Part shown: positions 6,932 to 28,186 of the stretch, piece after piece
Numbering within the stretch: position 1 is the stretch's first letter
Layout of the letters: every line of letters begins with the position of its first letter
Source: Thermoanaerobaculia bacterium
GTDB lineage: Bacteria > Acidobacteriota > Thermoanaerobaculia > Multivoradales > Multivoraceae
Direction of reading: 5' to 3'
Length of the DNA stretch: 64,000 bases
Assembly (NCBI GenBank): GCA_963664405.1
Contig: OY761158.1
Span: 352,001 to 416,000 of the forward strand
Translations under genes and position numbers: made by a program
Notes under the pieces: generated by a model
What the model was told of the DNA's origin: nothing
The model's input: only the letters and a program-made list of their open reading frames with translations
The model's database searches: none

Positions 6932-7302
6932 TTGGAGTTCTACTTTCGAGGCGTGAATCGCGAGGTGCTCGTTCTGTCGGCCGACGGCGGCCTGGGCTCG
7001 GATACTGCCGCTCACTTCGTCGACGAGCTCAAGGAGCTGATTCGAGGCGGCGCCACCAAGCTACTGGAGGAGGAAGCGCCATCGACTGCACCCAACTCAC
7101 CCACATTTCGAGTCTCGGCCTCGGCATTCTGGTCCGGCTCCACCACACCATGGCAAAACAAGGTGGCGACGTGAAGCTGGCCGCAGTGCGAAGCCTGGTC
7201 GTCGACCTCCTCGGCCACCTCAATCTCGACCGCCTCTTCGAGATCTATCCCGACGTCGACTCGGCCATGGAGGCCTTCGACTCCGAACGGGAGAGCACCT
7301 AG
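6932..7302 (+). pseudogene. STAS-domain anti-sigma factor antagonist, frameshifted by a 14-nt insertion
   Basis: Frame 1 reads LEFYFRGVNREVLVLSADGGL...GATKLL; frame 2 reads IDCTQLTHISSLGLGILVRLH...KLAAV...FEIYPDVDSAMEAF*. Deleting 7067-7080 (gaggaggaagcgcc) joins them in frame. Confidence 0.8.
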
Positions 7303-7463
7303 ACCAGCGTTTCCAAAGTTCGCGCACACATCTCGGCCCCTTCTGCCCGCTGGCGGCGTTGCGCCTCCTCGACATATTGCCCAATATGCCTGCGTCGCCG
7401 CGCCTGGCCAGCGAACAGAATGACCTCGAGCTGTGTGCACGAACTTTGGAAACGCTGGTCTAG
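7299..7463 (-). repeat. CTAG-bounded palindromic element E1 (arm type A, conserved hairpin core)
   Basis: Arms ctagaccagcgtttccaaagttcg / cgaactttggaaacgctggtctag; core catattg-cc-caatatg at 7373-7388. Confidence 0.9.
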
Positions 7464-7523
7464 TTCGGCTCTGCTGCTAACCTAGGCTTTGGCTGTAACC
7501 ATCTCGACTGGAGGTATTGCCGA

Positions 7524-8048
7524 ATGAAGAAGGTTCTAAGCATCGCAATCGCCTTGTCTCTGTGGGCAGCTATCGGAATCGCAGCCGACGAGAAGGCTCT
7601 CATCGCCGACGCTCTCAGCGCCGCGCCGCCAGCGATCACCGACGGCGCAACGGTCAAAGACGGCGATGGCAACGTGCTCAAGAAGGGCTCGAACGGATGG
7701 ACCTGCTACCCAGGAAACAAGGCCATCGGACCGATGTGTAACCAGGCTCAGTGGGACGCCGTGCTCGCCGCTCTCGGCGAGAAGAAGGATCCCCAGGTCA
7801 AGGAGCTCAGCATCTCCTACATGCTCGCGGGCGAGGGCGAGGCGATCGGGGTGAGCAACTCCGACCCCTATGCGTCAGATCCCCACGCCCACGGCGACTT
7901 CGTCAAGGAAGGCCCTCACCTGATGATCGTGGTGCCTGACAAAGCAGCACTGAAGGGCCTGTCGACTGACCCCAACGACCCAGTCTACGTCATGTGGGGC
8001 GACACGCCCTATGCCCACATCATGGTGAAAATCGCTCCAGCCGAGTAG
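7524..8048 (+). CDS. Secreted hypothetical protein
   Basis: Signal peptide, RBS ggagg upstream, ALSAAP...GWTC...PMC...GPHLMI...YAHIMV pattern, typical codon usage. Confidence 0.75.
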   Translation: MKKVLSIAIALSLWAAIGIAADEKALIADALSAAPPAITDGATVKDGDGNVLKKGSNGWTCYPGNKAIGPMCNQAQWDAVLAALGEKKDPQVKELSISYMLAGEGEAIGVSNSDPYASDPHAHGDFVKEGPHLMIVVPDKAALKGLSTDPNDPVYVMWGDTPYAHIMVKIAPAE

Positions 8049-8125
8049 ACCCTGGACCGAGCCGAAGATACACGAAGCTTCGATCGACCCATCCGGGCGC
8101 GGGCGCCCGGGTGGGCTCGCTCGCG

Positions 8126-9028
8126 TTACTGCGAGGCGCGCTCTTTGATGCGCCGTCCGAGCTCCCTGAGCTCGGCCGTGTCCTCCTCGGATGCCGACCG
8201 CCAGTGCACCTCGCGGCCGGCAAGGAGGCGGTCGAGGCGCCGCCACAGCTCGGTATTCTTGATCTCGCCCCCGTCCTTGGTGCGCCATCCTCTCGTCTTC
8301 CAGGCCGACATCCAAACCGAGGCGCCCTTGCGCAAGTAGTCCGAGCCGCCACGCACCAGAAGGGAGGAGTCCCTCGGCACGGCGGTGAGAATCTGCGCAG
8401 CCGCGACCAGCTCGAGCTGGTTCGCGGTCACTCCACTCATCCCTCCGCCCAAGACTTCCTCGGCCTTCTTCTCACGCAATCTCGCGGCCCACCCGCCCCA
8501 GCCTTTACGACAGGTGACCTTGAGAAGGACCTCAACGTCGACGTCGGTCTCGAGCTCGTCGACCTCGACGAAAGTCGCGGCTTCGCCCCTGATCTTTGCG
8601 ATCTCGGCGGTGGCCAGAGTGTCCGCTCGCTCGTTGTGCTCATGTCCGGAGTGCCCCTTGACCCAGCGCCAGTCGATCTCGTGTCGAAAGCTCGCCGCTG
8701 CGAGGCGCCGCCAGAGGTCGGCGTTCTTGACCGGCTCGCCATCACGCCGCCTCCAACCTGCGGCCTGCCACCCGGGCAGCCACTCGCTGATTCCACGACG
8801 CACGTAAGTGGAATCCGTGAAGATCTCCACATCGCAGCTGTCGTTCAGCGCCTCCAACGCCTCGATTGCGGCCATGAGCTCCATGCGGTTATTCGTCGTT
8901 TTGAGCGCGCCGCCGGAGATCTCTCGACTCTCGCCGGCGACGCTGTGAAGTAGAACCGCCGCCCAGCCGCCCGCCCCCGGATTGGGGACCGCGCCTCCAT
9001 CGGTGTAGATCACCACTCTTGCAGCCAT
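8126..9028 (-). CDS. rnhA: Ribonuclease HI with a second, degenerate RNase H domain
   Basis: [37 protein letters not shown]; the second half repeats GGWAA...NQLEL...DYLRKG...W...[16 protein letters not shown]. Start taken at ATG 9028. Confidence 0.88.
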
Positions 9029-9144
9029 CGGGGCGAGAGTAGCCGAAACGGGCCTTCCGACCAAGACCTGTTTGGCCCTCGGCTCGATCCGACGTAACAT
9101 CACTCGGCGACGCCGCCTCCGGCCCAGTGGGAGAATGGAAACCG

Positions 9145-10815
9145 ATGTCCCGAACAAGACTCGCTTGGCGAATACCCCTGCTCCTTCTGGCCGCCCTCGG
9201 CTGTCAGAAGAGCCCTGAACCGCCGCCCTCGCTGCCTGTGGTGCAGAGCGGACCTCGTCTCCTTCTTCTTGTCGCTGTCGATCAGCTCGCCTTCGAATAC
9301 CTCGGTCGCTTCGACCCCTTCTTCGAGGGAGGGTTGCGACAGCTCATGGATCAGGGTGTCCTTTTCGAGAACGCGAACTACGACCATGCGCTCACAGCCA
9401 CGGCAGCGGGGCACACGGCGATGGCCAGTGGCCTCCATCCCGCGAGCTCCGGCATCATCGGCAACGAGTGGTACGACCGTGGCCTGAGGTCGAGCCTCTA
9501 CAGCTTCGAAGGTCGCGAGCATCTGCGCTCGCCCCAGAATCTGAATGGCACCGGGCTGGCGGACTGGCTCAAAGAGCTCGACCCTCGCTCGAAAGCCTTC
9601 ACCGCGAGTGCCAAGGACCGTTCTGCGATCGCCATGGGCGGCCACGCCGCCGATGCCGCCTACTGGTTCGACAAAGAGACCGGGGCCTTCATCACCGGGA
9701 GCTACTACACTGACAGGCCCCCAGAGTGGGTCGAAGACTTCAACCGCAGCCGTCTCACCGACCGCATCTTCGGCGACCCCTGGGAACCGCTCCCGCTCAC
9801 CGACGAGGAGCTCGACCAGCTCGGAATCGTCGAGATCGATGAGGGGCTCTTTCCTCGACGCTTCCCTCACTCCATCGGCAACCAGAGCGTTGCCCCCGGT
9901 GGCTCGTTTTACCAAGGCATCTACGCCTCGCCTTTCGTCGACACTCATCTGCTCGAATTCGCCGAAGCCCTGGTCGACGCAGAGCAGCTGGGCCAGAGAG
10001 AGCATCTCGACTTCCTCGCCCTCGGCTTGTCGGCCCTGGACTCTGTCGGGCACAGCTTCGGGCCCCATAGTCGCGAAGCCGCGGATGTAGTCTTGCGACT
10101 CGATCGTAATCTCGGTCGCTTCCTCGAATTTCTCGACGCCCGGATCGGCCTCGAGCGAGTGGTCATCGCTCTCACTGCCGATCACGGCGTGCTGCCCGTG
10201 CCCGAGTACACGAGCTCGCTGGGGCTTCCCGGAGCTCGGATGGGTGCCGAAGATCGCGTCTGCTTCCAACGTGCGGGGCGCGCTATCGCCCAACGCTTCT
10301 TCCTGGAGGACTGGGTGATGTCCGGCTTCTACCTCGATCGAGAGATGATCGAGGGTGCGGGCGCTGACCCCGAGGAGGTCGAGGCCGCACTGGCCAGGGA
10401 GCTCGAGGGCTGCGCCATCGTCGAGCGGGTGTGGACCCGTGCCGAGCTCATGAATACGCGGATGGACGAGCCCGACCGGATGCGTCGTCTCTATCGCCAC
10501 AGCTTCCACGAGGAGCGGAGCCCGGACCTTCTGGTGCAGAAGATTCCCCACGCCATCTCCAGCGGGAGCGTCTTGGCCACCCACGGCTCACCCTACGAAT
10601 ACGACACCCACGTGCCCCTGTTCTTCCTCGTGCCTGGTGTTCCCGGGGGTCGCGTTGCGGAACCCGTCCGTATCGTAGACCTGGCTCCGACCCTGGCAGC
10701 CTTGGTGGGTATTCCCACTCCCGAGCGTCTCGACGGGCGAGAATTGACCAGCCTTCTCGAGGGTACGGCGCAGCAAGCTCCCTTTCTCCCCGCCTACAAA
10801 GAACAACGACGCTGA
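9145..10815 (+). CDS. Alkaline phosphatase superfamily lipoprotein (PafA/NPP-like)
   Basis: Lipobox [15 protein letters not shown] (Thr nucleophile), [25 protein letters not shown]. Confidence 0.88.
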
Positions 10816-10905
10816 TGAGGAGCTCGACGTCACCTAGAGTTCTTCGAGACTCCTGATCTCTCCAGGCGAGGTTTCCTCTAAGCCTCACACAGTGTCCAAT
10901 CCGGT

Positions 10906-11865
10906 ATGGGGAAACTCACCGGATGGCTACCGCGAGACCCTCGGACATGCCAGACCGCGGCACTGTCGCTCTTCCTCCTCTACGGCGTTACTCGGCTGCG
11001 TCTGCCCCTGAGCGCCGGCGACGTCACGCTTACGATTACAAGCGCGCTCGCCACTCAGTTCTTCTTCTCGCGCGCCTACCGCCTAGCTCACTTCGACCCA
11101 CGCAGTGCTCTGATCACGGCACTCTCGCTCTGCCTCCTTCTCCGTAGTGCGACTCCCGTCGGCATGATGCTCGGCGCCGCAATCGCGGTCGCCAGCAAAT
11201 TCGTCGTGCGTGTCGGCGGCCGGCACCTTTTCAACCCCTCCAATCTGGCGCTCGTCCTCATGATCGCCGTGGGCTGGGGCTGGGTGACTCCGGGCCAGTG
11301 GGGCAACATCGGCATCACCGCCGTCGTTCTCGCCGGCGCCGGAGCCTGGGTGGTGACGCGCGCGGCGCGGCTCGACCTCAGCCTCGCCTTCCTCGGGTTC
11401 TGGGCCCTGATCCTTATCGGCCGCGGCTGGATCCTCGGCGATCCCCTCGAGATCGCCCTTCACAGCCTCAAGAGCGGCTCTCTTGTTCTCTTCGCCTTCT
11501 TCATGCTCTCGGACCCCAAGACCACGCCCCGAGGACGCCTCCCCCGCGTCGCCTTCGCTCTCGCGATAGCCCTTGGTGGATACCTAGTGACCTTCTGGCT
11601 TTTCGAGCCCCACGGGTTCCTCTGGTCGCTCGTCTTCTGCACACCCCTCGCACCTCTATTCGACCGGATTCCGGGCCTTGGGCCCGACCCGCTTCCGGGC
11701 CTTCGGCCCACAAAGGAGAATCGAAATGAAGAAACTCTTTCTTGCGCTCATCCTCACCGCCACCTGGCCTGGCAGCGTCTCGGCCTTCTGCGGCTTCTTC
11801 GTCGCCAAGGCGGACACTCGCCTCTTCAACAGCAGCTCTCGCGTGGTCCTCGCACGGCACAATGA
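10906..11865 (+). CDS. RnfD/NqrB-like membrane protein
   Basis: Multi-TM; SALITALSLCLLLR, SKF...HLFNPSN, FFMLSDPKT motifs; the 3' end overlaps the next gene by about 140 nt. Confidence 0.75.
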   Translation: MGKLTGWLPRDPRTCQTAALSLFLLYGVTRLRLPLSAGDVTLTITSALATQFFFSRAYRLAHFDPRSALITALSLCLLLRSATPVGMMLGAAIAVASKFVVRVGGRHLFNPSNLALVLMIAVGWGWVTPGQWGNIGITAVVLAGAGAWVVTRAARLDLSLAFLGFWALILIGRGWILGDPLEIALHSLKSGSLVLFAFFMLSDPKTTPRGRLPRVAFALAIALGGYLVTFWLFEPHGFLWSLVFCTPLAPLFDRIPGLGPDPLPGLRPTKENRNEETLSCAHPHRHLAWQRLGLLRLLRRQGGHSPLQQQLSRGPRTAQ

Positions 11866-13039
11866 CCGCACCGTAGTCACCATGGAGAATGATTATCGCG
11901 GCGATCCTCGCGAATTCGCGATGGTGGTTCCGGTGCCGACCGTGCTCAGCCGCGGCCAGATTCACGTCGGCGAGACCAAGGTACTGGACCACCTCGACGC
12001 CTACACTGCCCCTCGACTGGTCGAATATCACGACCCCGACCCCTGTGAGGTGGAGCGGCGCATGCGTCGATCTCTCGACGCTGTCAGCGAGAGTGTGGTT
12101 TTGCCGGCAAGCGCTCAGCCGGGCCGGGCCTCGGGAGTCACGGTCGAGGCTCGCTATTCAGTGGGAGAGTACGATGTCGTCATTCTGTCGGCCACCGAGA
12201 GTAACGGACTCGAGGGCTGGCTACGAGCCAACGGGTACCGCCTTCCACCGGCGGCCGGCCGCATCCTCGGAAGCTACATTCGCCAAGGCCTCCACTTCTT
12301 CGTGGCCAAGGTAAATCTCGAGCGTCATCAAGGTCTCGGCCGGAGCACTCTCCGACCGCTCCAGATCGCTTACGAGAGCTCTCGCTTCATGCTCCCCATT
12401 CGCCTCGGCACCTTGAACGCAGACGGCCCGCAGGAGCTCTTTGTGTTCACTCTCACTCGCGCCGGACGTGTCGAGCCGGTCAACTACAGAACTGCCAGGC
12501 TGCCCACCGGCATGAACATCCCGGTCTTCATCAAAAACGACTTCGCGAGCTTCTATCGCGATATGTTCGACCGTCAGGTCAAGACCGAAGGAATGCGACC
12601 GGTCTTCCTCGAGTACGCCTGGGACATGGCGTGGTGCGATCCCTGCGCCGCCGACCCGCTCAGCGCCAAAGAGCTACGACAGCTCGGCGTCTTCTGGGCC
12701 GAAACGCCATCCCAGAGCGGAGCGCAGAACGTATTCGTCACCCGTATGCACCTCCGTTACGACGCGACCACCTTTCCTCAAGACCTGATCCTCCACGAGA
12801 CCGCCGATCGAACCAACTTCCAGGGCCGCTACGCCCTGCAGCACCCCTGGCAGGGTGAGAGCCGCTGTGCCGCCTCGGAGACCTATTTGGCACAACTCCC
12901 CGCTCGTTGGGATCGAGAGGCTCTCACCCTTGCCGAGCTCACCGGATGGACTCTAGAGGAGATCAACCGACGGATGGATCGTAAGGTACTCACCGTCGAG
13001 CCCAGTCCGACTTGGTGGCAGCGTCTCTGGAAACAGTGA
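11726..13039 (+). CDS. DUF2330 domain secreted protein
   Basis: RBS aaggag, signal peptide then AFCGFFVAKAD, FAMVVPVP, YTAPRLVEY, CDPCA. Confidence 0.85.
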   Translation: MKKLFLALILTATWPGSVSAFCGFFVAKADTRLFNSSSRVVLARHNDRTVVTMENDYRGDPREFAMVVPVPTVLSRGQIHVGETKVLDHLDAYTAPRLVEYHDPDPCEVERRMRRSLDAVSESVVLPASAQPGRASGVTVEARYSVGEYDVVILSATESNGLEGWLRANGYRLPPAAGRILGSYIRQGLHFFVAKVNLERHQGLGRSTLRPLQIAYESSRFMLPIRLGTLNADGPQELFVFTLTRAGRVEPVNYRTARLPTGMNIPVFIKNDFASFYRDMFDRQVKTEGMRPVFLEYAWDMAWCDPCAADPLSAKELRQLGVFWAETPSQSGAQNVFVTRMHLRYDATTFPQDLILHETADRTNFQGRYALQHPWQGESRCAASETYLAQLPARWDREALTLAELTGWTLEEINRRMDRKVLTVEPSPTWWQRLWKQ

Positions 13040-13092
13040 CGACGAGCGAGAGGGCGCCGTAGTAGAGGTAGACTCCCGGCGAAGCCAGGCTC

Positions 13093-14508
13093 ATGAGCGA
13101 CCTTCTACGACTCAGCCTTCTCGATCTCGTCACCCACCTGCACCAAAAGCAGGTATCACCGGTCGAGCTCATGTCCATCACTCTCGACCGCATCGACGCC
13201 ACCCACGACACGTTGAACGCGGTGGTTTCCAGGCGAGAGAGGGACGATCTGCTCGAAGATGCTCGCGCGAGCGGGGACCGTATCCAGCGCGGAGAGGCGC
13301 GCCCCCTCGAAGGCATTCCCCTTGGGGTCAAGGACCTAGAAGACGTCGCCGGGATGACCACCAGCTTCGCTTCGGTGCCTTTTCGCAACAACCTGGCAGC
13401 GACCGACTCCACTCAAGTCGGTCGCCTGCGAGCGGCGGGCGCCATCGTCGTCGCCAAGACCAACACCCCGGAGTTCGGCTTCACCGCGATCACCAAAAAC
13501 ATGCTCTTCGGAGACACCCGGTCACCATGGAATCCCACTCGCTCGCCAGGGGGCTCGAGCGGTGGCTCGGCAGCGCTCCTGGCGGGGTGTGTGCTCCCTC
13601 TCGTTACCGGCAGCGACGGCGGCGGATCGATTCGAATACCGGCTAGCTTCGTGGGAGCTTTCGGTCTCAAGCCGAGTTACGGGCGGGTTCCCAAGGGCCC
13701 CTCCACCCGTTGGGACTGGGCCGCCAACGCCGCTTTCGGGCCTCTCACCAAGACAGTCGAAGATGGAGCCTTCTTTCTCGACATCGTCGCGGGTCACTCT
13801 GAGGACGATCCTGCGAGCCTGCCGGATCCTCCGTTCTCTTATCTCCAAGAAGTCCGACGACCCCTGACCGAGAAGCTACGAATAGCCTACTCGCCCGATC
13901 TCGGCTACGCCGCTGTCCAATCAGACATCGCCGGCGCGGTTCGGGACGCGGCACTTGCTCTGGCTGACCTCGGGCACGAGCTGACTACGATCGAAGGGGG
14001 GCCGCCGCAGCTGGGAGGAGAATGGTCCTCCATCATGTATCTAGATCTGGCTGGGGTGCTGGCACCCTTTCTGCCGGAGCAGGAAGACACGATCACACGC
14101 TTTCTCATGAATGGCATACGAGAGACGCGAGGAATCGAACCGATGGCGTGGGACGAGATGCGTCGCAAACGCGCTCTACTAAACCAGTGGACGGCGGATC
14201 TCTTCCGCGACTACGACCTCTTGCTCACACCGACCGTCTCTTTCGACCCGCCGCCGAGCCGCGGACCTTTCCCGACCGAGATCGAGGGTAGAGAGCAGCC
14301 GCCCGCCGCCGCCGGGGCCCTGACCATCCCTTTCAATATGTCGTGGAATCCGGCAGCAACAGTCCGAGTGGGGCTGTCGAAGGCGGGTCTTCCGGTCGGC
14401 ATGCAGATCGTGGGCCCAAGGCTTCGAGACGACCTTGTGCTGCGCGCAGCTCGGGCTTTCGAGCAGGTTCGGCCGTGGCACCCGGATTGGCCCTCCGACT
14501 ATGCTTAG
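13093..14508 (+). CDS. Amidase signature family protein
   Basis: GVKDL, KTNTPEFG, PGGSSGGS, GSDGGGSIRIPAS. Confidence 0.93.
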   Translation: MSDLLRLSLLDLVTHLHQKQVSPVELMSITLDRIDATHDTLNAVVSRRERDDLLEDARASGDRIQRGEARPLEGIPLGVKDLEDVAGMTTSFASVPFRNNLAATDSTQVGRLRAAGAIVVAKTNTPEFGFTAITKNMLFGDTRSPWNPTRSPGGSSGGSAALLAGCVLPLVTGSDGGGSIRIPASFVGAFGLKPSYGRVPKGPSTRWDWAANAAFGPLTKTVEDGAFFLDIVAGHSEDDPASLPDPPFSYLQEVRRPLTEKLRIAYSPDLGYAAVQSDIAGAVRDAALALADLGHELTTIEGGPPQLGGEWSSIMYLDLAGVLAPFLPEQEDTITRFLMNGIRETRGIEPMAWDEMRRKRALLNQWTADLFRDYDLLLTPTVSFDPPPSRGPFPTEIEGREQPPAAAGALTIPFNMSWNPAATVRVGLSKAGLPVGMQIVGPRLRDDLVLRAARAFEQVRPWHPDWPSDYA

Positions 14509-14917
14509 AGCCGGCCTGCCGCGCGGACTCCTAGCCCTCTTCATTTTTCTCGTCTTTGCCGCCTGCAGTTCTCCCAACCGGGGCTGGTGGCAGGGCAGCT
14601 TCGAAGGTGACGTGGCCGGTACGATGGAGCTCTCGATCAACGCCCGCGGAACCAAGGCCAAGGGAGAGGTGACCGGGCGTCTGAGTAGCGGCGAGGGCTT
14701 TCGAGCTGAGTTCGAAGGGACCCTCAATCAGGGATTTCTCCGCGCCGAGCTCACCGGATCGAGCGAGACCAGCGTGGGCCTACGAGCCGGCTTCGAAGGT
14801 CTCATCACAGGCGACCTCGCCGCCGGCAAGGGCGCCGGCCAGTGGAAGGCCGACCTAAAGCCGGCCGGCCGCCAACTCGAGGGGGAGTGGCAGGCCAGTC
14901 AGGATCCTACTCGCTAG
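14501..14917 (+). CDS. Hypothetical lipoprotein
   Basis: Lipobox FAAC after a hydrophobic stretch; Gly-rich beta-strand pattern; overlaps the amidase stop. Confidence 0.6.
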   Translation: MLRAGLPRGLLALFIFLVFAACSSPNRGWWQGSFEGDVAGTMELSINARGTKAKGEVTGRLSSGEGFRAEFEGTLNQGFLRAELTGSSETSVGLRAGFEGLITGDLAAGKGAGQWKADLKPAGRQLEGEWQASQDPTR

Positions 14918-14936
14918 GCGGAGAAGCAGATCGGTC

Positions 14937-17403: not shown

Positions 17404-17570
17404 CTAGTGTCCTGTAACAGTAGTTCGTCACACAACTCGCTGGCCCTTTCGCGCGCTGCCGTCGTTGCTCCTCCTCGACATATTCCCCAATATGCCTGCG
17501 TCGTAGCGCCTTGGCAGCACCCAAAATGACTGCGCGATTTATGCAACGAACCACTGTTACAGGACACTAG
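17404..17570 (-). repeat. CTAG-bounded palindromic element E2 (arm type B)
   Basis: Arms ctagtgtcctgtaacagt / actgttacaggacactag; core catatt-cccc-aatatg at 17479-17494. Confidence 0.9.
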
Positions 17571-17745
17571 ACCAGCGTTTCCAGAGTTCGTGCTGCATAG
17601 CTCGAGCTCATTCTGTTCGCTGGCCAGGCGCGCCGACGCAGGCATATTGGGCAATATGTCGAGGAGCGCGGGGGCGCCTAGCCAACGCCGGCAGCGGGCA
17701 GAAGGGGCCGAGATATGTGCGCGAACTTTGGGAACGCTGGTCTAG
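17567..17745 (+). repeat. CTAG-bounded palindromic element E3 (arm type A), sharing a CTAG with E2
   Basis: Near-identical to the reverse complement of E1, plus an extra internal segment; core at 17643-17658. Confidence 0.9.
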
Positions 17746-17799
17746 AATCATCTCGAGACCAGTCGGCGCGACTGCGAGGAACGGTCTCAGGAGGCGACG

Positions 17800-19173: not shown

Positions 19174-19189
19174 GCCTGGGCCGCCCTCC

Positions 19190-21055
19190 ATGTTCGGCCC
19201 ACACGAGCTACTAGCGCCGCCACCGCAGCGCTGTCGCGTCTCCGAAGAGGCGCTAGCTCTACCTCGACACATCGCCTACTCGCCGCTTCCCGAGGAGGCG
19301 GCTGCGCCCCTCGAGAGGCTCGATCGCGCTCTTCGGCGCGTCGGCTCCGAGCTCTCATCCGCCTCCACGACCCAAGAGCCGTTTCTTCGCTGTGAGAGCG
19401 GAGCTGAAGGACTTCCGGCGCAGGGTTACAGGCTAAGGGTGGGTCCATCCGGAATCGACATCGCGGCTCGGGATCGTCCGGGCCTCCACTACGCGATCTC
19501 CACCCTTGCGCAGTGGTGCCGACTCCACGAGGGCCGCGCGGCGCCGTCCCTTGGAGCCCTCGAGATCGAGGACGCGCCTGACATCGAGAACCGCGGCGTG
19601 ATGCTAGACATCAGTCGCAACAAGGTACCGAGGCTCGAGACCCTATTCGACCTCGTCGACCTCCTAGCCGGCTGGAAGATCAACCAGCTCCAGCTCTACA
19701 CCGAGCACACCTTCGAGTACCGCGGACACGAGGCAGTTTGGCGCCATGCCAGCCCGCTCACGCCTGACGACATCCGCGCCCTCGACGCCCACTGTAGGGC
19801 TCGCTGCATAGAGCTCGTTCCCAACCAAAACAGCCTCGGACACATGCATCGCTGGCTGGTACATGAGCCCTATCGTCAGCTTGCGGAGTGCCCCGAGGGT
19901 ATCGAGCACCCCTTCAGCAAGGTTCGCGAGCCCTTCAGCCTGTGTCCGACCGACCCCGGCTCTCTGGCGCTCCTTGACGACCTCTACGCTCAGCTCCTTC
20001 CCTGCTTCACCAGTGATCTCTTCAACGTCGGCCTCGACGAGACTTTCGACCTGGGTAAAGGACGCTCCGGGGAGCCTTGCGGCGAGCTGGGCGGGGCGCG
20101 TGTCTATCTCGACTTCCTGCGCGCTGTCCATCAACGCGTGGAGGCTCATGGCAGAAGGATGATGTTCTGGGGAGACGTCATCCTCGACCACCCCGAGCTG
20201 GTCTCCGAGCTCCCGAAACGGGCGGTCGCTCTGCTCTGGGGCTATGAGGCGACCCACCCCTTCGCCGAGCAAGCCGCGATCCTGGCAGCTTCGCCTTTAG
20301 ACTTTTATCTATGCCCCGGCACCAGCAGCTGGCGAAGCTTTTCGGGGCGCTGGCGGAATGCGGTTCTCAACCTCGGAGCCGGCGCCACCGCCGCCCATGA
20401 TCACGGCGCCCTCGGCTACCTGATCACGGACTGGGGAGATAACGGCCACCTTCAAGTACTCCCGATCAGCTATGCGGGCTTTCTGGCCGGTGCTTGCTTT
20501 GCCTGGAGAATCCAGAGCGCAAGAGCGCCACTCGAGTTACCGTTGGCGCGCCTACTCGACCTTCATGCCTTCGACGGCCTCAGCCTCGGCGCCGTCACCG
20601 AAGCTCTCGGCAACGCCTACCTCGAGAGCGGCGCCGAGCTGCTGAACGGTACCGCGCTATTCCATCTGTTGATGTCGGCCGATTCTCCGTTCTCCGACCG
20701 AGGTCTCGACAAGCTGGACCCGAAAGCTCTGGCAAGAACCGCCGAGTCGCTGCAGGCTCAACTCGAGCTCCTGCGCGAGCTCAGCCCGACCGGCGCGGAG
20801 GACACCCGAGTCCGGGATGAGCTGACATGGACCGCGGAGGCACTCCTCCTTGCCTGCGATCTAGGGCTCGAGCGCCTGGCTAGGCCGGAGGCGCGCCTGG
20901 CGGAACTGGGGCGCGACACGCGCGTGGCGCTAGCTCAGCGAGTCGAGGGTCTCGTCGAGCGGCGACGCAAGCTATGGTTGGCTCGAAACCGTCCCGGCGG
21001 AATGGAGGACTCCCTCGCACTTCTAGGGAGCCTGCTCGAGCTGCTCGCGCTCTAG
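19190..21055 (+). CDS. Glycoside hydrolase family 20 (beta-N-acetylhexosaminidase-like)
   Basis: RGVMLDISR, KINQLQLY, NSLGH, catalytic GLDET, TDWGD. Confidence 0.85.
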   Translation: MFGPHELLAPPPQRCRVSEEALALPRHIAYSPLPEEAAAPLERLDRALRRVGSELSSASTTQEPFLRCESGAEGLPAQGYRLRVGPSGIDIAARDRPGLHYAISTLAQWCRLHEGRAAPSLGALEIEDAPDIENRGVMLDISRNKVPRLETLFDLVDLLAGWKINQLQLYTEHTFEYRGHEAVWRHASPLTPDDIRALDAHCRARCIELVPNQNSLGHMHRWLVHEPYRQLAECPEGIEHPFSKVREPFSLCPTDPGSLALLDDLYAQLLPCFTSDLFNVGLDETFDLGKGRSGEPCGELGGARVYLDFLRAVHQRVEAHGRRMMFWGDVILDHPELVSELPKRAVALLWGYEATHPFAEQAAILAASPLDFYLCPGTSSWRSFSGRWRNAVLNLGAGATAAHDHGALGYLITDWGDNGHLQVLPISYAGFLAGACFAWRIQSARAPLELPLARLLDLHAFDGLSLGAVTEALGNAYLESGAELLNGTALFHLLMSADSPFSDRGLDKLDPKALARTAESLQAQLELLRELSPTGAEDTRVRDELTWTAEALLLACDLGLERLARPEARLAELGRDTRVALAQRVEGLVERRRKLWLARNRPGGMEDSLALLGSLLELLAL

Positions 21056-21217
21056 TGTTGTGTCTCCGACATGGCTTGCCAAGAGCTCGAGATCATTTTA
21101 TTCGCTGTCAAGGAGCGACGAGGCAGGCATATTGGGAATATGTCGACGAGTCGCGACGACGGCAGCGGGCAAAAGGGGCCGAGATATTGGTAAGCCATGT
21201 CGGAGACACGGCACTAA
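21052..21217 (+). repeat. Palindromic element E4 (arm type C; CTAG...CTAA)
   Basis: Arms ctagtgttgtgtctccgacatggctt / aagccatgtcggagacacggcactaa; core catatt-ggg-aatatg at 21128-21142. Confidence 0.88.
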
Positions 21218-21225
21218 CAGGGTCG

Positions 21226-22290
21226 TCAGGGCGTGAAGTCGCGATCGGCCGCCATCGAGCTCACGAACGCGGAGAGCAGCCGCGCGGCCGCATCGAGGTC
21301 GTCGAGTGAGATCATTTCGACGGGAGTATGCATGTAGCGATTCGGGATGCCGAGGGCCGCGGTCACCACCCCCGCGCGCGTGAGCTGGAGTACGTTGGCA
21401 TCGTTGGGAGTCCCCCTTGGCGCGCCTTTGTGCTGCAGCGGAATATCCTCCTTCTCCGCCACGGTGCACAGGAGGTCCCACAGGCGCGGGTTGATATTCG
21501 GCCCCCGGAAGAGTACTGGCCCCTTGCCCAGCTCCACTTCGCCATGCTCGCGACGATCTATCGTCGGGCAATCGGTGGCGTGAGTGACGTCGACTCCGAT
21601 TCCGATGTCCGGGTCGATACCATAGGCCGCCGTGGTGGCGCCGCGCAGGCCGACCTCCTCCTGAACGGCCGAAACCACGAAGAGGGAACCGTCGAAGCGG
21701 GCCTTGGCCAGACGACGAAGGGTCTCGCAGACGACGAAGAGGCCGGCGGTATTGTCCATCTTGGGTCCGGCAAGCCTCCGATTCGGGAGGTCCACCGAAC
21801 CGAGGCGGAGGGTCACCGGATCTCCGATGCGCACACTCTCACGCGCCTCTTCCGCCGAGACCGCGCCGATGTCTATCCACAGATCGGAGATCTTGGTCGC
21901 CTTCCTCGCTTCCTCGGCGGAGAGAAGGTGTTTCGGCTTGCGGCCGATGACACCCGCTAGCGCCCCTGCGCCGCTCCACACCACGACGGCTTGGCCCAAC
22001 AAGATGGGCAGGTCCCATCCTCCTATCGGCTGCACGTAGAGGAAACCGTGTTTATCGATGTGTTGCACCATGAGACCGATCTGATCGCAATGGCCATCCA
22101 GAAGGATTCTCGGTCGCCCGCCCGCGTTGAGGGTCGCGATCACGTTGCCATGAACATCGGTGCACACCTCATCCGCGTACTCGTCCATCCAACGACGGAC
22201 TATGGCCTGCGCCTGCTCTTCGTACCCCGAGGGGCTAGCGGTATTGAGTAGCTCGTCCAGCAACTGTCTCGATTCTTGCTCGATCGTCAT
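21226..22290 (-). CDS. M42 family metallopeptidase
   Basis: SPSGYE, GHCDQIG, DNTAG, QEEVGLRGA, DVTHATD, RYMHTPVE; ATGA overlap with the upstream gene. Confidence 0.9.
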   Translation of the reverse strand: MTIEQESRQLLDELLNTASPSGYEEQAQAIVRRWMDEYADEVCTDVHGNVIATLNAGGRPRILLDGHCDQIGLMVQHIDKHGFLYVQPIGGWDLPILLGQAVVVWSGAGALAGVIGRKPKHLLSAEEARKATKISDLWIDIGAVSAEEARESVRIGDPVTLRLGSVDLPNRRLAGPKMDNTAGLFVVCETLRRLAKARFDGSLFVVSAVQEEVGLRGATTAAYGIDPDIGIGVDVTHATDCPTIDRREHGEVELGKGPVLFRGPNINPRLWDLLCTVAEKEDIPLQHKGAPRGTPNDANVLQLTRAGVVTAALGIPNRYMHTPVEMISLDDLDAAARLLSAFVSSMAADRDFTP

Positions 22291-23264
22291 CCCCAAAGCT
22301 CCCTAGGTGGTGGTGAAAGGACGCCGCGGTCGTAGCGAAGACACGGCAGCCGATCCTCCGCAAGTAAGAGCGGACCGTCTAGATCGACAAACTCGCAATT
22401 CTGCCCGATCAGAGAAGCGGGCGCCATCGCCAACGACGTACCAAGCATGCAACCCACCATCAGGCGAAGCCCCCGGCTCTGTGCATCTTCAGCGAGAGCA
22501 AGAGCCTCGGTCAGGCCCCCGGTCTTGTCGAGCTTTATGTTGATGAACTGGTAGCGGCCCTCGACCGCATCCAGCGAGCCGCGATCCAGGCAGGACTCAT
22601 CGGCCGCCACCGGTAAGGGGAGGCGGAGAGAATCGAGCGCAGCGTCTTCCCCAGCGGGCAGAGGTTGCTCGATGAGCTCGACACCGAGTGCGTCGAGACG
22701 CTCCGCCGCATCCTCCAGGATATCGGCGGTCCAGGCCTCGTTCGCATCGACGATGATTCGACTCTGCGGAGCGGCCTCACGCACAGCGCGCACTCGGGCG
22801 ACGCTCCCCTCTCGGCCGAGCTTGACCTTCAACAACGGGCGATCCGCGACACCCCCCGCCTGCTCAGCCATCAGCGCAGGCTCGTCGAGGCTGATGGTGT
22901 AAGCGGTGACGATCTCCCTCAGACCGTCGAGACCTGCGAGTCGCCACGCCGGAACATCCTCGCGCTTCGACTGCAGATCCCAGAGGGCGCAGTCGAGGGC
23001 ATTGCGAGCGGCGCCCGCACCGAGAAGCTCCTGGAGCTGGTCTCGATCGAGCCCGCCCTCGACCCGCGGACGCAAGTCCTCCAACTCGGTCCTGGAGCGC
23101 TCGATCGTCTCGCCAGAGATTCGGAATGGGCAAGCTTCGCCCCGCCCGACGAGCCCGTCCTCCTCGACCTCGACAACAAGCACTTCAACAGAGGTCACAG
23201 CACCTCGGGAGATCCGAAATACGCCTGCAACCGGCCATATCTCTTGCGACAATGTCAGCTTCAC
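22287..23264 (-). CDS. dgcA: Enolase-superfamily epimerase (N-acetyl-D-Glu racemase DgcA / L-Ala-D/L-Glu epimerase)
   Basis: KVK, DANEAW, EQP, ADES, NIKLDKTGG, DLDGPL; adjacent to DUF1611. Confidence 0.82.
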   Translation of the reverse strand: MKLTLSQEIWPVAGVFRISRGAVTSVEVLVVEVEEDGLVGRGEACPFRISGETIERSRTELEDLRPRVEGGLDRDQLQELLGAGAARNALDCALWDLQSKREDVPAWRLAGLDGLREIVTAYTISLDEPALMAEQAGGVADRPLLKVKLGREGSVARVRAVREAAPQSRIIVDANEAWTADILEDAAERLDALGVELIEQPLPAGEDAALDSLRLPLPVAADESCLDRGSLDAVEGRYQFINIKLDKTGGLTEALALAEDAQSRGLRLMVGCMLGTSLAMAPASLIGQNCEFVDLDGPLLLAEDRLPCLRYDRGVLSPPPRELWG

Positions 23265-24265
23265 GAAGTCTCCAAGCGATCTACCAGCGCGGCCACGCCG
23301 GTCCTGATCGGGTCCACACAGGGTAAGTCGAGTCTACGGCCGATTTCGTCGAGAAGGTTCTCGGCCGCGGCCGTGCTCATCCCCTCGGTGTTGACAGAGA
23401 TACCGACGCACTCTGCCTTGGGGTTGGTGAGACGCGCCGCCTCCACATTGCGGGTAGCGCACTCACCAAGGCTCGGCAGGCCGAACTTCTCGAACCCGTG
23501 GACTCGTTCGCGACCGGCTCGGTGGCAGAGCACCAGAGCATCCGGCTGACTACCATGGATGAGGCCGAGAGTGACTCCAGCATAGCCGGGGTGAAAGAGA
23601 GACCCCTGGCCTTCGATTACATCCCAATGGTCGGGATCATTCTCCGGTGATAGCCACTCGGCGGCTCCCGAAACGAAGTCCGAAACGACGGCGTCCACCG
23701 AGACTCCTCCGCCCGCGATCAGAATGCCGGTCTGCCCCGTTCCCCGAAAGTTCGAGCTCATTCCTCGCCTACGCATCTCTCTGTCGATCGCGAGCGCGGA
23801 ATACATCTTGCCGACCGAACAGTCGGTGCCAACGGTTAGAAGACGCTTGCCCGCACGCCTCTCCCCGGTGCCAACCGGAAAGGTGCGCCCAGGGTTTCGG
23901 ACGTCGAAGAGGCGGCGGCCGTAGCGCTCGGCAACAGTCCGCACCGACTCCAGATCGCGCAATCGTGCGTGCAGTCCGGAGGCTACATCGAGACCGCAGC
24001 GCAGGGCGTCGACGACTGAGCTCTGCCAGTGCTCCGGAATGACCCCGCCCACGTTTGCGACACCGACCACCATGGTTCTGGCACCCAGATCACTGGCCTC
24101 GGCGGGAGTGAGCTCGGGCAGACCGAGATCCGAGCCGACGCCGCCGATGCGTAGTTGACCGATGCACGCCTCGGGGCACCAATGGGCGAGGCCACGAGCC
24201 GTTTTGGCGAGAGCCGAGCTCTCCTCGTCTCCCAAGAAAAGGAGGTAGGGGGTAAGGATCTCCAT
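23261..24265 (-). CDS. dgcN: DUF1611 protein (D-glutamate N-acetyltransferase DgcN-like)
   Basis: PYLLFLGD...AKTA, VGTDCSVGKM, TGQTGILI, EGQGSLFHP. Confidence 0.85.
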   Translation of the reverse strand: MEILTPYLLFLGDEESSALAKTARGLAHWCPEACIGQLRIGGVGSDLGLPELTPAEASDLGARTMVVGVANVGGVIPEHWQSSVVDALRCGLDVASGLHARLRDLESVRTVAERYGRRLFDVRNPGRTFPVGTGERRAGKRLLTVGTDCSVGKMYSALAIDREMRRRGMSSNFRGTGQTGILIAGGGVSVDAVVSDFVSGAAEWLSPENDPDHWDVIEGQGSLFHPGYAGVTLGLIHGSQPDALVLCHRAGRERVHGFEKFGLPSLGECATRNVEAARLTNPKAECVGISVNTEGMSTAAAENLLDEIGRRLDLPCVDPIRTGVAALVDRLETS

Positions 24266-24314
24266 GCTCTTGCGCGGCAGGCGAGTATACAGTCTGGCGA
24301 TGGCCGCAGCTCCG

Positions 24315-25664
24315 ATGTCCAGACTCACGACCCTCTCTCTCGCCGCGGGACTCCTCTTAGGCTGTTCGCCACAGCCCCCTGTTTCACCACCACCTCAGAA
24401 CGTCATTCTGCTCTTGGTCGACACGCTTCGAGCAGACCACCTCGGCACCTACGGATACTCTCGCTCGACAAGCCCGGGTCTCGACAGGCTCGCCGAGAAC
24501 ATGGTGGTCTTCGAGAATGCTCTGAGCCAGGCCGCCTGTACCTTTCCGTCGGTCAATTCCATCTTCACTTCGCGCTATCCCGCCAGTTTCAGGCCCTCTT
24601 CGCCGGGGGATTGGAGCATTCCGGCGAGTCTCGCCACCTTGCCCGAGATTCTGCTCGAGAGGGGCTACTCGACGATAGCCATCTCTGCCAGTCCCGTGGT
24701 CCGACGAACACCTTCCCATCACAACACCACCGGCGGCTACGATCGAGGTTTCTCGGTATTCGACGAGACCTGCCTCGGCAAAGACGCGAGCTGTATCGGT
24801 CAGCGGGCCCGCCATCTGCTGACCGAGCCGGACGCTCCGGTCTTTCTCTACCTCCACTATATGGAGCCGCACAACCCCTACCAGCCTCCCCCCCATCATC
24901 GGCGCCGCTTCGCCACCGCCTCGAGGCCAACGCCTTTCATTCGACGTGGGAATCTGGGGCCGATCAGCCGAATGCTCTATCTCGGCGGCGACGCGGTCGA
25001 TGTAGGAGCCGAGGATCGGCGCCACCTCGTGGACCTCTACGACGACGAGATCTCTTATCTCGACAGCTCTGTGACCGCACTGCTCCAAGACATCGATCGT
25101 ACACTCGACCCCGCCGAAACGATCCTGGTCATCGCCTCTGACCATGGTGAAGAGCTCTTCGACCACGGTGAGGTGAGTCACTGCCGCGATCTTGCCTGGC
25201 AGAGCGTCCTCCATGTGCCGCTGGCCTTTCGCATTCCGCGCGTCTCCGGCCGGCGACGAAGCTCACCCGTCGAGAACCTCGACATCGTTCCCACCATCCT
25301 CGACTATCTTCGCTTCCCCTCGTCGGCCCTCGCGCTCGAGGGCCGGAGCCTGCGCCCTCTGATCGAGGGTAACGAGGCCGTCCACCAATATGTCTTTGCC
25401 GCTCAGGGGCGTTATCGCGTGGTCAGTGACGGCCGCTTCAAGCTGCGCCTTGACCTCGCTACCCAAGCGCAGTCTCTCTACGACCTGGAGGCGGACCCCG
25501 GCGAGATCAACGACCTCAGCGGCCAGGGCAGAGACCATGAGGATCTCTTGTCGGAGGCGCTACGGCAGTGGCTTGGTGGCCAAGAGCAGCTCGGCGCGAC
25601 GGCCGATGCGCTCGAGCAGGCCAGAGAGACGCAGCGCCAGCTCGACGCCCTCGGCTACCTTTAG
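24315..25664 (+). CDS. Sulfatase-like lipoprotein
   Basis: Lipobox LLGC, VDTLRADHLG, HYMEPHNPY, SDHGEE; the canonical CxPxR is replaced by CTFPSV. Confidence 0.85.
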   Translation: MSRLTTLSLAAGLLLGCSPQPPVSPPPQNVILLLVDTLRADHLGTYGYSRSTSPGLDRLAENMVVFENALSQAACTFPSVNSIFTSRYPASFRPSSPGDWSIPASLATLPEILLERGYSTIAISASPVVRRTPSHHNTTGGYDRGFSVFDETCLGKDASCIGQRARHLLTEPDAPVFLYLHYMEPHNPYQPPPHHRRRFATASRPTPFIRRGNLGPISRMLYLGGDAVDVGAEDRRHLVDLYDDEISYLDSSVTALLQDIDRTLDPAETILVIASDHGEELFDHGEVSHCRDLAWQSVLHVPLAFRIPRVSGRRRSSPVENLDIVPTILDYLRFPSSALALEGRSLRPLIEGNEAVHQYVFAAQGRYRVVSDGRFKLRLDLATQAQSLYDLEADPGEINDLSGQGRDHEDLLSEALRQWLGGQEQLGATADALEQARETQRQLDALGYL

Positions 25665-26245
25665 AATCCCTCTTCGCCCTCGACCGCGCTCTGGAAGTCC
25701 TCGACCTTGTGACTCATCATCACCAAGTCGTGACTGTTGCCATCCAAATCCTTGACGTGGTCCTTGAGCAGGGCCTCCGGGCGGAAACCAAGGGACTCGA
25801 AGACCGAGATCGCTCCCTTCTGATCCACCGTCATGCGCGCCACCATCTTCTCTATACCGCTGCGCAGGGCGGTCTTGAAGCCCTCTTGCGTCAGCAGCCG
25901 CCCCAGGCCCTTGCCTCTCACCGCTGGAGACACGACCACTCGAAGCTCAGCGACATGCGCGGACCATCGAAGCGCGTTGCGGTGAATGGTGCCATAGCCC
26001 ACTACTTCATCGTCCGAGCGGGCGAGAACGGTCAGCGCATCTCCGGACTCGACATCACGGAGCCAGTCCTCGATCACCTCGAGCTGAGTGATATCGCGCC
26101 TCAAGAAGAGTAAGTCGTGCTCCTCCAGCCCTTGGGAAAAGGCGAGCACTGCCTCCGCGTCCTTGGCGCTCATGTACGACAGAATGACTTGCAGCTCACC
26201 AAGCTGCCGGATCGCCGGGTAATCAGGATCTCGTTCCAAGCTCAT
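25661..26245 (-). CDS. GNAT family N-acetyltransferase
   Basis: VSPAVRGKGLG acetyl-CoA motif, FESLGF. Confidence 0.85.
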   Translation of the reverse strand: MSLERDPDYPAIRQLGELQVILSYMSAKDAEAVLAFSQGLEEHDLLFLRRDITQLEVIEDWLRDVESGDALTVLARSDDEVVGYGTIHRNALRWSAHVAELRVVVSPAVRGKGLGRLLTQEGFKTALRSGIEKMVARMTVDQKGAISVFESLGFRPEALLKDHVKDLDGNSHDLVMMSHKVEDFQSAVEGEEGF

Positions 26246-26435
26246 AAACAACGCTCCGCAAGCCACACATCACTGGCCGCATCCATGAGGGGGTAGCCGA
26301 AACTCTGGGGAGGGTCCTTGTCACTCATCGAGTCGCTCAGGCTCACGACTGGAGCCGGCAGTCTATCCCGAGATCGATCTCCTGCGGCACCGCCGGCCTC
26401 AGTTGAAATTTGGCATCTTCACCCAGACGACCTAG

Positions 26436-27989
26436 GAGTCTGCGCGGCAGAAACGGAGTGTTTAGTGAAGAGATCGAAGACGGAGTAGAGTTGTGGCATG
26501 CCAACGTCATTTCGTCCGTATGCCCCGGATCAGCTGTATCTGTTAGCTCCGAGCCCTCGTGACTGGTTGCCGGAGGGTCACTTGGTGTACTTCATCTCCG
26601 AGACGGTGGAGGCGCTGGATCTGTCGTCGTTCTACGCTCGTTACGAGGGGGATGGTCGTCGGAATCAGCCGTTCGATCCTCGGATGATGGTGAAGGTTTT
26701 GCTGTATGCGTATGCGACGGGGACGTATTCGTCGCGTGGCATCGCGCGCAAGCTCGAGGAGGACGTGGCCTATCGTTTTCTGGCGGCGGGCAACTCTCCG
26801 GCGCATCGCACGATTTGTGAGTTTCGTCAGCTTCATTTGGCGGCCTTCCACGCACTGTTCGTGCAGGTGGTGCAGATCGCGCGTGAGGCCGGGGTGTTGC
26901 GTCTGGGGACGTTGGTGGTGGACGGTACGAAGGTCAAGGCCAACGCGAGCAAGCGCAAGTCGATGAGCTACGGTCGAATGCTGGAGGAGGAGAAGCGTCT
27001 GGAGGAGGAGATCGCCGCGCTGATGGCGCAGGCCGAGGCGGTGGATACGGCTGAGGATGCCGAGCATGGAGCGCAGCTGCGCGGCGATGAGCTGCCGGCC
27101 GAGCTGCAACGGCGCGAGCAGCGCTTGGCGAAGATCCAGGAGGCGAAGGCGCGCCTCGAGGCGCGCCAGGCCGAGAAGGACCGCGCGCGCGGCCGTACGG
27201 AGGATGACGACGACGATCCGCCTCGTCGCGGACGCCCCTTCGCGCGCGATTTCGGTGTTCCGGAGGACCGGGCCCAAGACAACTTCACCGATCCGCAGAG
27301 TCGGATCATGAAAACGGTCCATGGCTACGATCAGTGCTACAACGGCCAGTTGGCGGTGGAGGAAGAGTCGCAGATGATCGTCTCGACGAGCCTGACGAAC
27401 AACGCCGCGGACGTGGACCAGATGATGCCGTTGCTCTCCCGGGCGAAGGCGGCGCTGGGGGAGGATCCCGAGCAGGTCTTGGCGGACGCGGGGTATCGCA
27501 GCGAGGCGACATTCCTCGAACTCGAGGAGCGAAGCATTGACGCTCACATCTCCTTGGGTCGAGAGGGAAAGAAGTGGGAAGTGAGTACGCAGCTCGAAGC
27601 GTCTCACCGCATGCAGATCAAACTCGCCAGCGAGGCCGGCAAGCAACGCTACCGACGGCGCAAGGCGGTCGTGGAACCGGTGATCGGGTGGATCAAAGAG
27701 GTGCTGGGCTTCCGACGATTCAGCCTCCGGGGCCAAGACAATGTCGGCCACGAGTGGGATCTGGTGTGTCTGGCCGTCAACTTGAAGCGCTTCCACGTCC
27801 TCCAAGCGGCTTCATGAGCCGCTCCGGGCCATGCCACCGAGTTAGAGCTCACTATACGACCCGCATCGCGCTTCCTGACGCCTCGTCAGGCTTGCTCAAC
27901 GCACTCTCCGCCATCCGAAACCCAATGCGGCGTCCATTCTGCAGCGCGATCGAAGCTTCACCGTACCCGCACTCCTGCCGCGCAGACTC
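26436..27989 (+). mobile_element. IS1182-family insertion sequence, copy 1
   Basis: TIR gagtctgcgcggcag / ctgccgcgcagactc; CTAG duplication at 26432-26435 and 27990-27993; 1554 bp, matching 51462-53015. Confidence 0.93.
26498..27817 (+). CDS. IS1182-family DDE transposase
   Basis: DUF772-type N-terminus (FDPRMMVKVLLYAY), VDGTKVKANAS, NFTDPQSRIM, LADAGY, VEPVIGWIK. Confidence 0.93.
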   Translation: MPTSFRPYAPDQLYLLAPSPRDWLPEGHLVYFISETVEALDLSSFYARYEGDGRRNQPFDPRMMVKVLLYAYATGTYSSRGIARKLEEDVAYRFLAAGNSPAHRTICEFRQLHLAAFHALFVQVVQIAREAGVLRLGTLVVDGTKVKANASKRKSMSYGRMLEEEKRLEEEIAALMAQAEAVDTAEDAEHGAQLRGDELPAELQRREQRLAKIQEAKARLEARQAEKDRARGRTEDDDDDPPRRGRPFARDFGVPEDRAQDNFTDPQSRIMKTVHGYDQCYNGQLAVEEESQMIVSTSLTNNAADVDQMMPLLSRAKAALGEDPEQVLADAGYRSEATFLELEERSIDAHISLGREGKKWEVSTQLEASHRMQIKLASEAGKQRYRRRKAVVEPVIGWIKEVLGFRRFSLRGQDNVGHEWDLVCLAVNLKRFHVLQAAS

Positions 27990-28186
27990 CTAGCCTGGAT
28001 TATTCATGAGGTCCGTAGCGAGGTGCCGCAGATGCCCGGAGATACAAGGCGTCGCGACCGAGGGCACCGCAGGCGTATTTGGCAATACGTCGAGGGGCGC
28101 GATGGGGACGCCCAGTCCGAGCGCAACGAAGTAGATTCGGGCAGCTGCGGCACCGCAGTAGGAGCTTCATGAACAATCCAGGCTAG
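27990..28186 (+). repeat. CTAG-bounded palindromic element E5 (arm type D)
   Basis: Arms ctagcctggattattcatga / tcatgaacaatccaggctag; core cgtatt-tggc-aatacg (compensatory variant) at 28074-28089. Confidence 0.88.

Follow-up and report, generated by a model that had tools for sequence, protein, structure and literature searches.

A shared folded core beneath different ends in a superfamily of bacterial MITEs

Introduction

Bacterial MITEs (miniature inverted-repeat transposable elements) derived from the insertion sequence (IS) family IS630 include RUP of the pneumococcus, Nezha of cyanobacteria and MITEEc1. The subject here is a set of five intergenic elements (elements 1 to 5) in a 64,000-nt stretch of DNA, referred to below as the window, from the genome of a Thermoanaerobaculia bacterium of the phylum Acidobacteriota (GenBank assembly GCA_963664405.1, contig OY761158.1, positions 352,001 to 416,000). 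The window is part of a single 6.78-Mb contig with 62.6% G+C. All five belong to one superfamily of MITEs, non-autonomous DNA transposons 150-200 bp in length. Like the IS630-derived MITEs, they are small, non-coding and multi-copy, with IS630-like terminal repeats, a TA target and a full length that can fold as a hairpin. Unlike them, they present one body under at least seven end classes, and it is the centre, not the ends, that is kept between classes and between phyla. As MITEs the elements are of a known kind, and what is new is the shared folded core beneath different ends.

Several described systems resemble these elements in part. The CORE-SINEs, V-SINEs and Deu-SINEs of animals (short interspersed elements) possess a conserved central domain with exchangeable mobilisation modules, and they are retroposons moved by the machinery of long interspersed elements (LINEs). 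The kept centre and exchangeable ends are common to both groups, but the elements described here are cut-and-paste DNA elements. Repetitive extragenic palindromes and bacterial interspersed mosaic elements (REP/BIME), which are associated with RAYT, and integron attC sites have no terminal inverted repeats, cause no target duplication and are moved by single-strand enzymes. The present elements are likewise strand-specific imperfect hairpins scattered between genes. They differ from REP/BIME in their length of 150-197 bp, their terminal repeats and their TA/CTAG flanks. REPs are given as 20-40 bp long with a GTAG or CGTC head in the accessible part of a published account (PMC3733652). MITEPsy1 of Pseudomonas syringae is derived from the IS5 family, and its use of CTAG or YTAA targets with a 4-nt duplication has been shown experimentally (PMC3189936). 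Its target logic is that of the class-F-like copies in a Pirellulaceae assembly described below, but MITEPsy1, as far as the accessible part of that paper describes it, is 100 nt long, with a single end type and no core in common with other families.

The closest precedent is eukaryotic. In the CMITEs of corals it is the terminal repeats that differ more between families and the interior that differs less, for a reason left unexplained in the accessible part of the paper. They have a short terminal motif in common, and the authors suspect that the internal region takes part in transposition (PMC2872659). The same reversed conservation, together with a short terminal motif in common, is found here, which removes the suggestion in a first-pass annotation of the window that the pattern is without precedent. 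The coral elements are piggyBac-related and belong to one genus, and the accessible text reports no folded, covarying core for them, whereas the present elements are bacterial, draw their ends from more than one IS family and cross phyla. A survey of 183,232 prokaryote genomes, which names a MITEEc1_IS630, finds 97.4% of MITE clusters each confined to a genus, according to the accessible part of the preprint (bioRxiv 10.1101/2024.01.18.576219). No description of the family or of its core was found in the literature, with subscription journals, ISfinder and supplementary files outside the scope of the search (among them the MITE sequences from the 2024 survey, in which these elements might be present).

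One core beneath seven end classes

A relaxed form of the core pattern occurs at 223 places in the genome. Pairing of arm motifs independently of the core yields 235 elements in seven end classes, 232 of which can be oriented by the core. Class A comprises 139 copies, B 30, C 21, D 11, E 16, F 10 and G 8; the window contains class A twice and classes C, E and F. The elements are 150-197 bp in size, lack a transposase gene and carry terminal inverted repeats of about 13-30 bp. Copies within a class are 95-99% alike.

Comparison between classes reveals that conservation is reversed, the centre being kept while the ends vary, as the first-pass annotation had noticed in the window. Class A agrees with classes C, D and E at 5-7 of 16 positions at each end (31-44%), compared with 76 of 99, 81 of 97 and 86 of 100 positions in the middle (77-86%). 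The conserved part had been taken to be a hairpin. The centre is indeed conserved, but in classes A, C, D and E the conservation covers about 100 nt and it is the terminal 16-30 nt that differ. The description of the arms in the window as four unrelated types is also correct in part. The arms do differ, and class F alone differs throughout from the other arm classes, but three of the four have an IS630-type start: as judged by eye, the sequence G[TA][GC]NNN[CT]GT after CTA is common to classes A-E and G. Within a class the core is conserved no more than the remainder of the element, and copies decay evenly along their length.

Longer arm pairs in the genome are copies split by other mobile elements. 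Those of class A are MITEs split by an IS91-like element plus an integrase (twice) and by an IS21 element. At C1:6272420-6275119 (L001) and C1:6758847-6761546 (L002), a 2.5-kb insert interrupts a class A MITE precisely in the apical loop of the core and codes for a tyrosine integrase and an IS91-like Y2 transposase. The two copies of this 2.7-kb composite are 97.4% identical and both are CTAG-flanked, and the solo insert is absent from the genome. Either the whole 2.7-kb unit has moved by means of the MITE ends, or the hairpin loop is what the insert targets. The arm pair at C1:3888782-3888909 is the sole one of the 139 in class A with a 128-bp interior unrelated to the core body.

Structure of the core

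The heart of the core can be written C-GCA-[GGCRUAUU-loop-AAUAYGUC]-GA-GGAG. The fold has an apical stem of 8 bp and a lower stem of 7 bp, separated by an almost invariant GCA/GA internal loop. Covariation among 29 diverse copies is 0.254 against 0.082 in shuffled controls, none of 500 of which reaches the observed value, and controls in which the stem is slid give at most 0.152. For 33 hits of a 65-position covariance model in other genomes (30 distinct sequences) the corresponding values are 0.336, 0.125 and at most 0.112, and 11 of the 15 pairs change on both sides. Among the stem variants are switches from AU to GC at several positions, and in one copy the apical stem is longer and wholly different. 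The apical switch CATATT/AATATG versus CGTATT/AATACG, picked out from the five window copies at the outset, is genuine and is one among several compensatory switches in other copies. The G.U pair at stem position 2 is kept in 26 of the 30 distinct sequences.

The loop measures 3 to 7 nt among exact-pattern matches and is longer in variants found by the model. This variation excludes a double-stranded operator of fixed spacing and, together with the covariation (above all 500 shuffles), upholds the first-pass claim that the loop varies while the stem covaries. A covariance model, proposed as a check on that claim, gave matches in both Acidobacteriota and Planctomycetota genomes. An extra small stem is present at the identical point 3′ of the core in three lineages.

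The two strands of the element are not equivalent. The top strand folds better than its complement in 7 of 7 class consensuses, by 4 to 37 kcal/mol. On this strand, mismatches in the rods of classes A-E are G.T in 33 cases and A.C in 8; for 16 representatives the counts are 86 versus 52, some families being without bias. None of the sequencing runs listed for this stretch is an RNA run. The covariation, the loop lengths and the extra stem indicate a folded single strand rather than a double-stranded operator. Rfam 15 gives no match in the window at gathering thresholds, in agreement with the earlier view that no named family fits. With the limit relaxed to E<=10, the elements and eight foreign copies retrieve only plant microRNA-precursor hairpin models and noise.

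Origin of the ends

Full-length IS630-family elements in related genomes are 1105-1254 bp long, score 223-284 bits against NF033545 (cut-off 100) and are flanked cTA...TAg. Arm E aligns over about 26 nt with the terminal repeat of one such element, in genome G024. Arm B aligns with IS630-family ends of G013 and G036 over the first 13 nt, and with that of G013 over about 29 nt. By the evidence of these alignments, arms B and E are terminal repeats of distinct IS630-family lineages. Since two classes carry IS630-family terminal repeats, they would be moved in trans by IS630-type transposases. The core is absent from all these full-length elements. With arms that match IS ends and IS that are without the core, the arms would be borrowed transposase-recognition ends and the core their cargo. 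The idea of a structured cargo on interchangeable IS-like ends had been put forward from the window alone, and it is strengthened by the IS630 matches of arms B and E, by the ISAzo13-like and YTAR-type ends found elsewhere and by the covarying hairpin. A comparison of the arms with IS ends in the same genome, suggested at that time, found no matching element there; it was related genomes that supplied the matches of arms B and E.

Other hosts provide other ends. Copies in a Pirellulaceae assembly have class-F-like ends, and the four flanking bases are identical on both sides in 53 of 67 copies (20 CTAG, 19 TTAG, 11 TTAA, 2 CTAA and 1 ATAA); these ends make a 4-bp YTAR duplication. The ends of a planctomycete copy (G305, L207) align over about 35 nt with the ends of an ISAzo13-family element. 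The genome of the window has 27 full copies of this 2013-bp element (NF033519, 403 bits) with TAA/TTA flanks, for example at L187 562-2574, and no MITE derivative of this element was found in it. Copies from two further planctomycetes (G266 and G280) combine CTAG with GTGG-type arms, and by eye their outer stem and CAAGG/AACG loop are as in the window's genome. More arm types occur in related Acidobacteriota.

Several candidate partners were rejected. The two IS630 copies and the ISAzo13 element of this genome have ends that differ from the arms. A class A arm beside an ORF in G024, considered as an insertion sequence, is a solo arm adjoining a gluconolactonase gene. For class F, the IS630-type and DDE_Tnp_1 loci examined in the Pirellulaceae assembly are without F arms, and an IS1634-family element of that assembly is alike in the first 6-8 bases only, for which no claim is made.

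Target site and genomic position

IS630 elements insert into the TA of CTAG. Among the 223 core matches 213 are arm-typed, and 165 of these are flanked by CTAG on both sides. A further 12 copies have both flanks of YTAR form but not both CTAG, and 11 of the 12 read xTAG...CTAy, as predicted for element ends G...C. The flanks therefore fit a TA duplication within CTAG, with the element itself ending in G...C. In the genome CTAG is three-fold under-represented, with 7502 occurrences versus 23,230 expected.

As CTAG is rebuilt on both sides, many copies lie exactly on TAG stops. Crude gene calls, used for all counts of gene context given here, place 90 element ends at an exact TAG stop codon. The stop codon is rebuilt by the terminal G of the element, and from the sequence such insertions are predicted to leave the protein unaltered. 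Copies are found between convergent genes in 71 cases and between divergent genes in 33. The orientation of the top strand has no bias with respect to flanking genes, either in tandem contexts (51 co-directional versus 60 opposite) or at stop codons (38 sense versus 52 antisense). Relative to an origin placed from GC skew, 139 of 232 copies carry their better-folding strand on the leading-strand template (p=0.003), perhaps because the stronger hairpin is less tolerated on the lagging-strand template. The cumulative orientation of the MITEs peaks near 1.86 Mb, and the minimum of the GC skew is at 2.74 Mb.

Distribution across phyla

A scan with the exact core pattern, covering one genome per species, identified at least 99 loci, where about four matches are expected by chance in the scanned collection (as estimated here from the length of the pattern and the size of the collection). 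The record titles of the matches listed name at least seven phyla. The groups among these listed matches are Pirellulaceae, Acidobacteriota, Syntrophaceae, Smithella and other 'delta' metagenome-assembled genomes, Nitrospirae, Methylomirabilota, Akkermansia and Chlamydiae. Cross-phylum matches are also alike beyond the pattern, in closing C-G pairs and GAGG. The Pirellulaceae assembly contains about 378 arm matches versus none for a control pattern, and five of five Smithella-type genomes are multi-copy, with 7 to 47 matches each. At E<=1e-3 the covariance model has matches in 24 of the 151 Acidobacteriota genomes sampled, including the window's own genome and the unpublished G086 (a single match), and 6 of 121 Planctomycetota genomes at E<=1e-4. 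Viral contigs yielded no match to the exact core pattern, and a distant blastn search of a plasmid collection with element 5 gave no match.

Multi-copy, MITE-like repeats in at least seven phyla contain the same heart of about 35 nt, joined there to other ends. The base composition of the elements tracks that of the host, with AT-rich rods in the Chlamydiae copy and GC-rich ones here, and the heart is unchanged. In another member of the Acidobacteriota (G037), class A, C and E copies are 89-96% identical to those of this genome, compared with 67% for the sole coding match between the two genomes, indicating that horizontal transfer occurs.

The elements of the window

All five elements proposed for the window are present as full-length imperfect palindromes bounded by CTAG, except for a CTAA at the right flank of element 4. 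The strand given for each is the orientation of its top strand (reading GCAGGC...GTCGAGG), and the bodies run from G to C with a TA on both sides. Element 1 (7302-7460, minus strand; core hairpin 7369-7393) is a copy of end class A (GACCAGCGTTTCC...), with the TA at 7300-7301 and 7461-7462 lying in CTAG. Its left CTAG provides the TAG stop of the upstream open reading frame (ORF). The predicted fold of this element is a near end-to-end rod, of -112.7 kcal/mol for the top strand (z -13.3) and -95.3 for the bottom strand (z -12.0). Element 2 (17407-17567, minus strand; core hairpin 17475-17499) is a class C copy (GTGTCCTGTAAC...) and has one TA in common with element 3 (17570-17742, plus strand; core hairpin 17638-17662), a class A copy belonging to the variant of 172-173 nt, which has an extra stem of 13 nt 3′ of the core. 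At 17404-17745 two MITEs of unlike end classes (C and A) thus adjoin with a single TA between them. Repeat pile-ups of this kind arise in the genome because each MITE insertion remakes CTAG targets at its own borders. Element 4 (21055-21214, plus strand; core hairpin 21123-21146, with a 3-nt loop) is a class E copy (GTGTTGTGTCTCCGACATGG...) flanked by CTAG on the left and CTAA on the right, the arms of which align with IS630-family terminal repeats of a related genome. Element 5 (27993-28183, plus strand; core hairpin 28069-28093) is a class F copy (GCCTGGAYTATTCATGAGG) with the core stem CGTATT/AATACG, a variant frequent in other phyla.

Each of the five core hairpins matches the exact core pattern, GCAGGCRTATT-N3-5-AATAYGTCGA. 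The pattern has these 5 matches in the window and none in 100 dinucleotide shuffles, which bears out the original observation of one core common to all five. The loops in the window are of 3-4 nt. A five-way alignment of the elements has 47 invariant columns, grouped at the centre and at the CTAG flanks.

An IS1182-family insertion sequence of 1.55 kb (26436-27989, plus strand; NF033551, 364 bits) precedes element 5 and has its right CTAG in common with it. It codes for a 439-aa transposase (26498-27817), carries the terminal repeat GAGTCTGCGCGGCAG and is CTAG-flanked. At least eight copies exist in the genome, several of them 100% identical, and a second copy is near 51460-53015 of the window. 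It was considered as a partner of the MITEs and rejected: the CTAG target is alike, but the ends are unrelated. A match to a DDE_Tnp_1 transposase at 55470-55991 (46 bits) has 3 copies in the genome.

Role of the core

Taken as a whole, the elements are probably best explained as a MITE superfamily with exchangeable ends and one retained core, for which a fold-back role is proposed. A new end class would originate when new terminal repeats become joined to the abundant palindromic body, one possible route being a switch of template when an excised insertion sequence is repaired. In classes A, C and G the same GTTCG stands at the junction, a hint of microhomology in such events. The chimeras that retain the core would be those that multiply. 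What the core contributes is more tentative. The best guess is that it serves as a cis-acting fold-back nucleus aiding the transposition of very short elements. The A/T-rich apical hairpin would start hairpin or cruciform formation of the approximately 160-bp palindrome, and the fold-back would bring the ends close to one another for whichever DDE transposase matches them, a help that would be needed by an element whose shortness prevents looping. The conserved internal loop may in addition be recognised by a protein of the host or of the transposon. Within a class the core is kept no better than the rest, yet it is the only part kept between classes and phyla, which argues for selection on which copies multiply, not on each inserted copy. 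It is kept in company with transposases of different families and so is unlikely to be a transposase binding site. There is a lesser chance, which should be regarded as doubtful, that the heart (the GCA/GA internal loop closed by the covarying stem, followed by GAGGAG) is a widespread structured motif, as RNA or single-stranded DNA, with an activity of its own in at least three DDE families and at least seven phyla. That activity might be that of a general transposition enhancer or of a protein-binding or catalytic RNA.

A number of points weigh against the fold-back reading and the superfamily model of which it forms a part. A role in cruciform formation leaves unaccounted for the top-strand mismatch bias of classes A-E (33 G.T versus 8 A.C) as well as the near-invariant GCA/GA loop and the GAGGAG stretch, and the fold-back role is itself inferred. 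The strand bias is not universal, being 4:6 in class F and 1:5 in one other Acidobacteriota family. The apparent invariance of the core is partly due to exact-pattern searching, and the alignment of the 33 foreign hits was fitted to the covariance model. Arm A has a weak likeness to an IS630-family element of G034, and no partner for arms C, D, F and G was found among the IS630-family elements of related genomes. This genome has no autonomous partner with matching ends, nor does any long arm pair in it enclose an IS630-family transposase. No empty sites were found: relatives have no flanking DNA in common with these loci, and in the contigs of four DNA runs the contigs end inside the arms at 4 of 4 sites, with no joint that bypasses an element. 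The TA duplication is consequently a reading of the flank statistics.

Three rival explanations follow in falling order of likelihood. The core may be a functional RNA module read from the top strand (protein-binding, processing or catalytic) that hitch-hikes on MITEs and is kept for the use of the transcript to the element or the host. This is unlikely, though a good deal of the structural evidence is in keeping with it. The stems covary about a near-invariant asymmetric internal loop, the G.U at stem position 2 is kept in 26 of 30 distinct sequences, the rod mismatches of classes A-E are of the G.U kind on the top strand (33 versus 8), and this strand folds better by 4-37 kcal/mol in all seven consensuses. 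The optional extra stem is in the same place in three lineages, and the core persists as composition drifts from AT-rich to GC-rich hosts. An RNA function is opposed by the absence of orientation bias relative to genes in the counts given above (51 versus 60 in tandem; 38 versus 52 at stops; crude gene calls), by the lack of any Rfam match and by a core that is no more conserved than the rest within a class, and DDE transposition requires no RNA. Less probable again, and on present evidence improbable, is a core without function, which would be the commonest palindromic filler, template-switched into new MITEs and spread across phyla by horizontal transfer. The even decay of copies along their length agrees with such a filler, as do its patchy occurrence within phyla (24 of 151 and 6 of 121 genomes) and the 89-96% identity of class A, C and E copies in G037 beside a sole coding match of 67%. 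Across phyla, however, only the heart of about 35 nt has escaped divergence, and double changes preserve the pairing of the flanking stems. This is the signature of long purifying selection and not of recent transfer, and the heart has moreover been retained on at least three kinds of ends.

The third rival, offered as an alternative in the first-pass annotation, is that the elements are substrates of a single-strand recombinase (HUH/Y1 or tyrosine) in the manner of REP/BIME or integron attC. It can hardly be credited, because terminal inverted repeats that match IS630 and the apparent target duplications are typical of DDE transposons and a length of 150-200 bp is far above that of REPs. Imperfect hairpins with strand-specific mismatches would suit such an enzyme, as would the modest bias in replication direction (139 of 232, p=0.003), but this replichore bias is weak and could be explained by the tolerance of hairpins on the lagging-strand template.

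Significance

The repeats have practical consequences. They break short-read assemblies at every copy, sit on stop codons and can carry cargo, as in the 2.7-kb composite with its two copies. The core also offers a compact probe with which to trace horizontal transfer among distant bacteria of soil and sediment. The usual definition of a MITE goes by its ends, and the interior is regarded as junk that varies from family to family and from genus to genus; here a folded core is kept while ends of different transposase lineages are exchanged and phyla are crossed. If the core is an RNA, it would constitute a new and very abundant class of motif. Should the heart have an activity of its own, it would be a bacterial, experimentally tractable counterpart to the still unexplained 'core' domains found in CORE-SINEs and in coral CMITEs. 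If it is true that the core promotes mobility, it would reveal something that the mobility of very short DNA transposons requires in general, and would explain why so many MITEs are palindromic.

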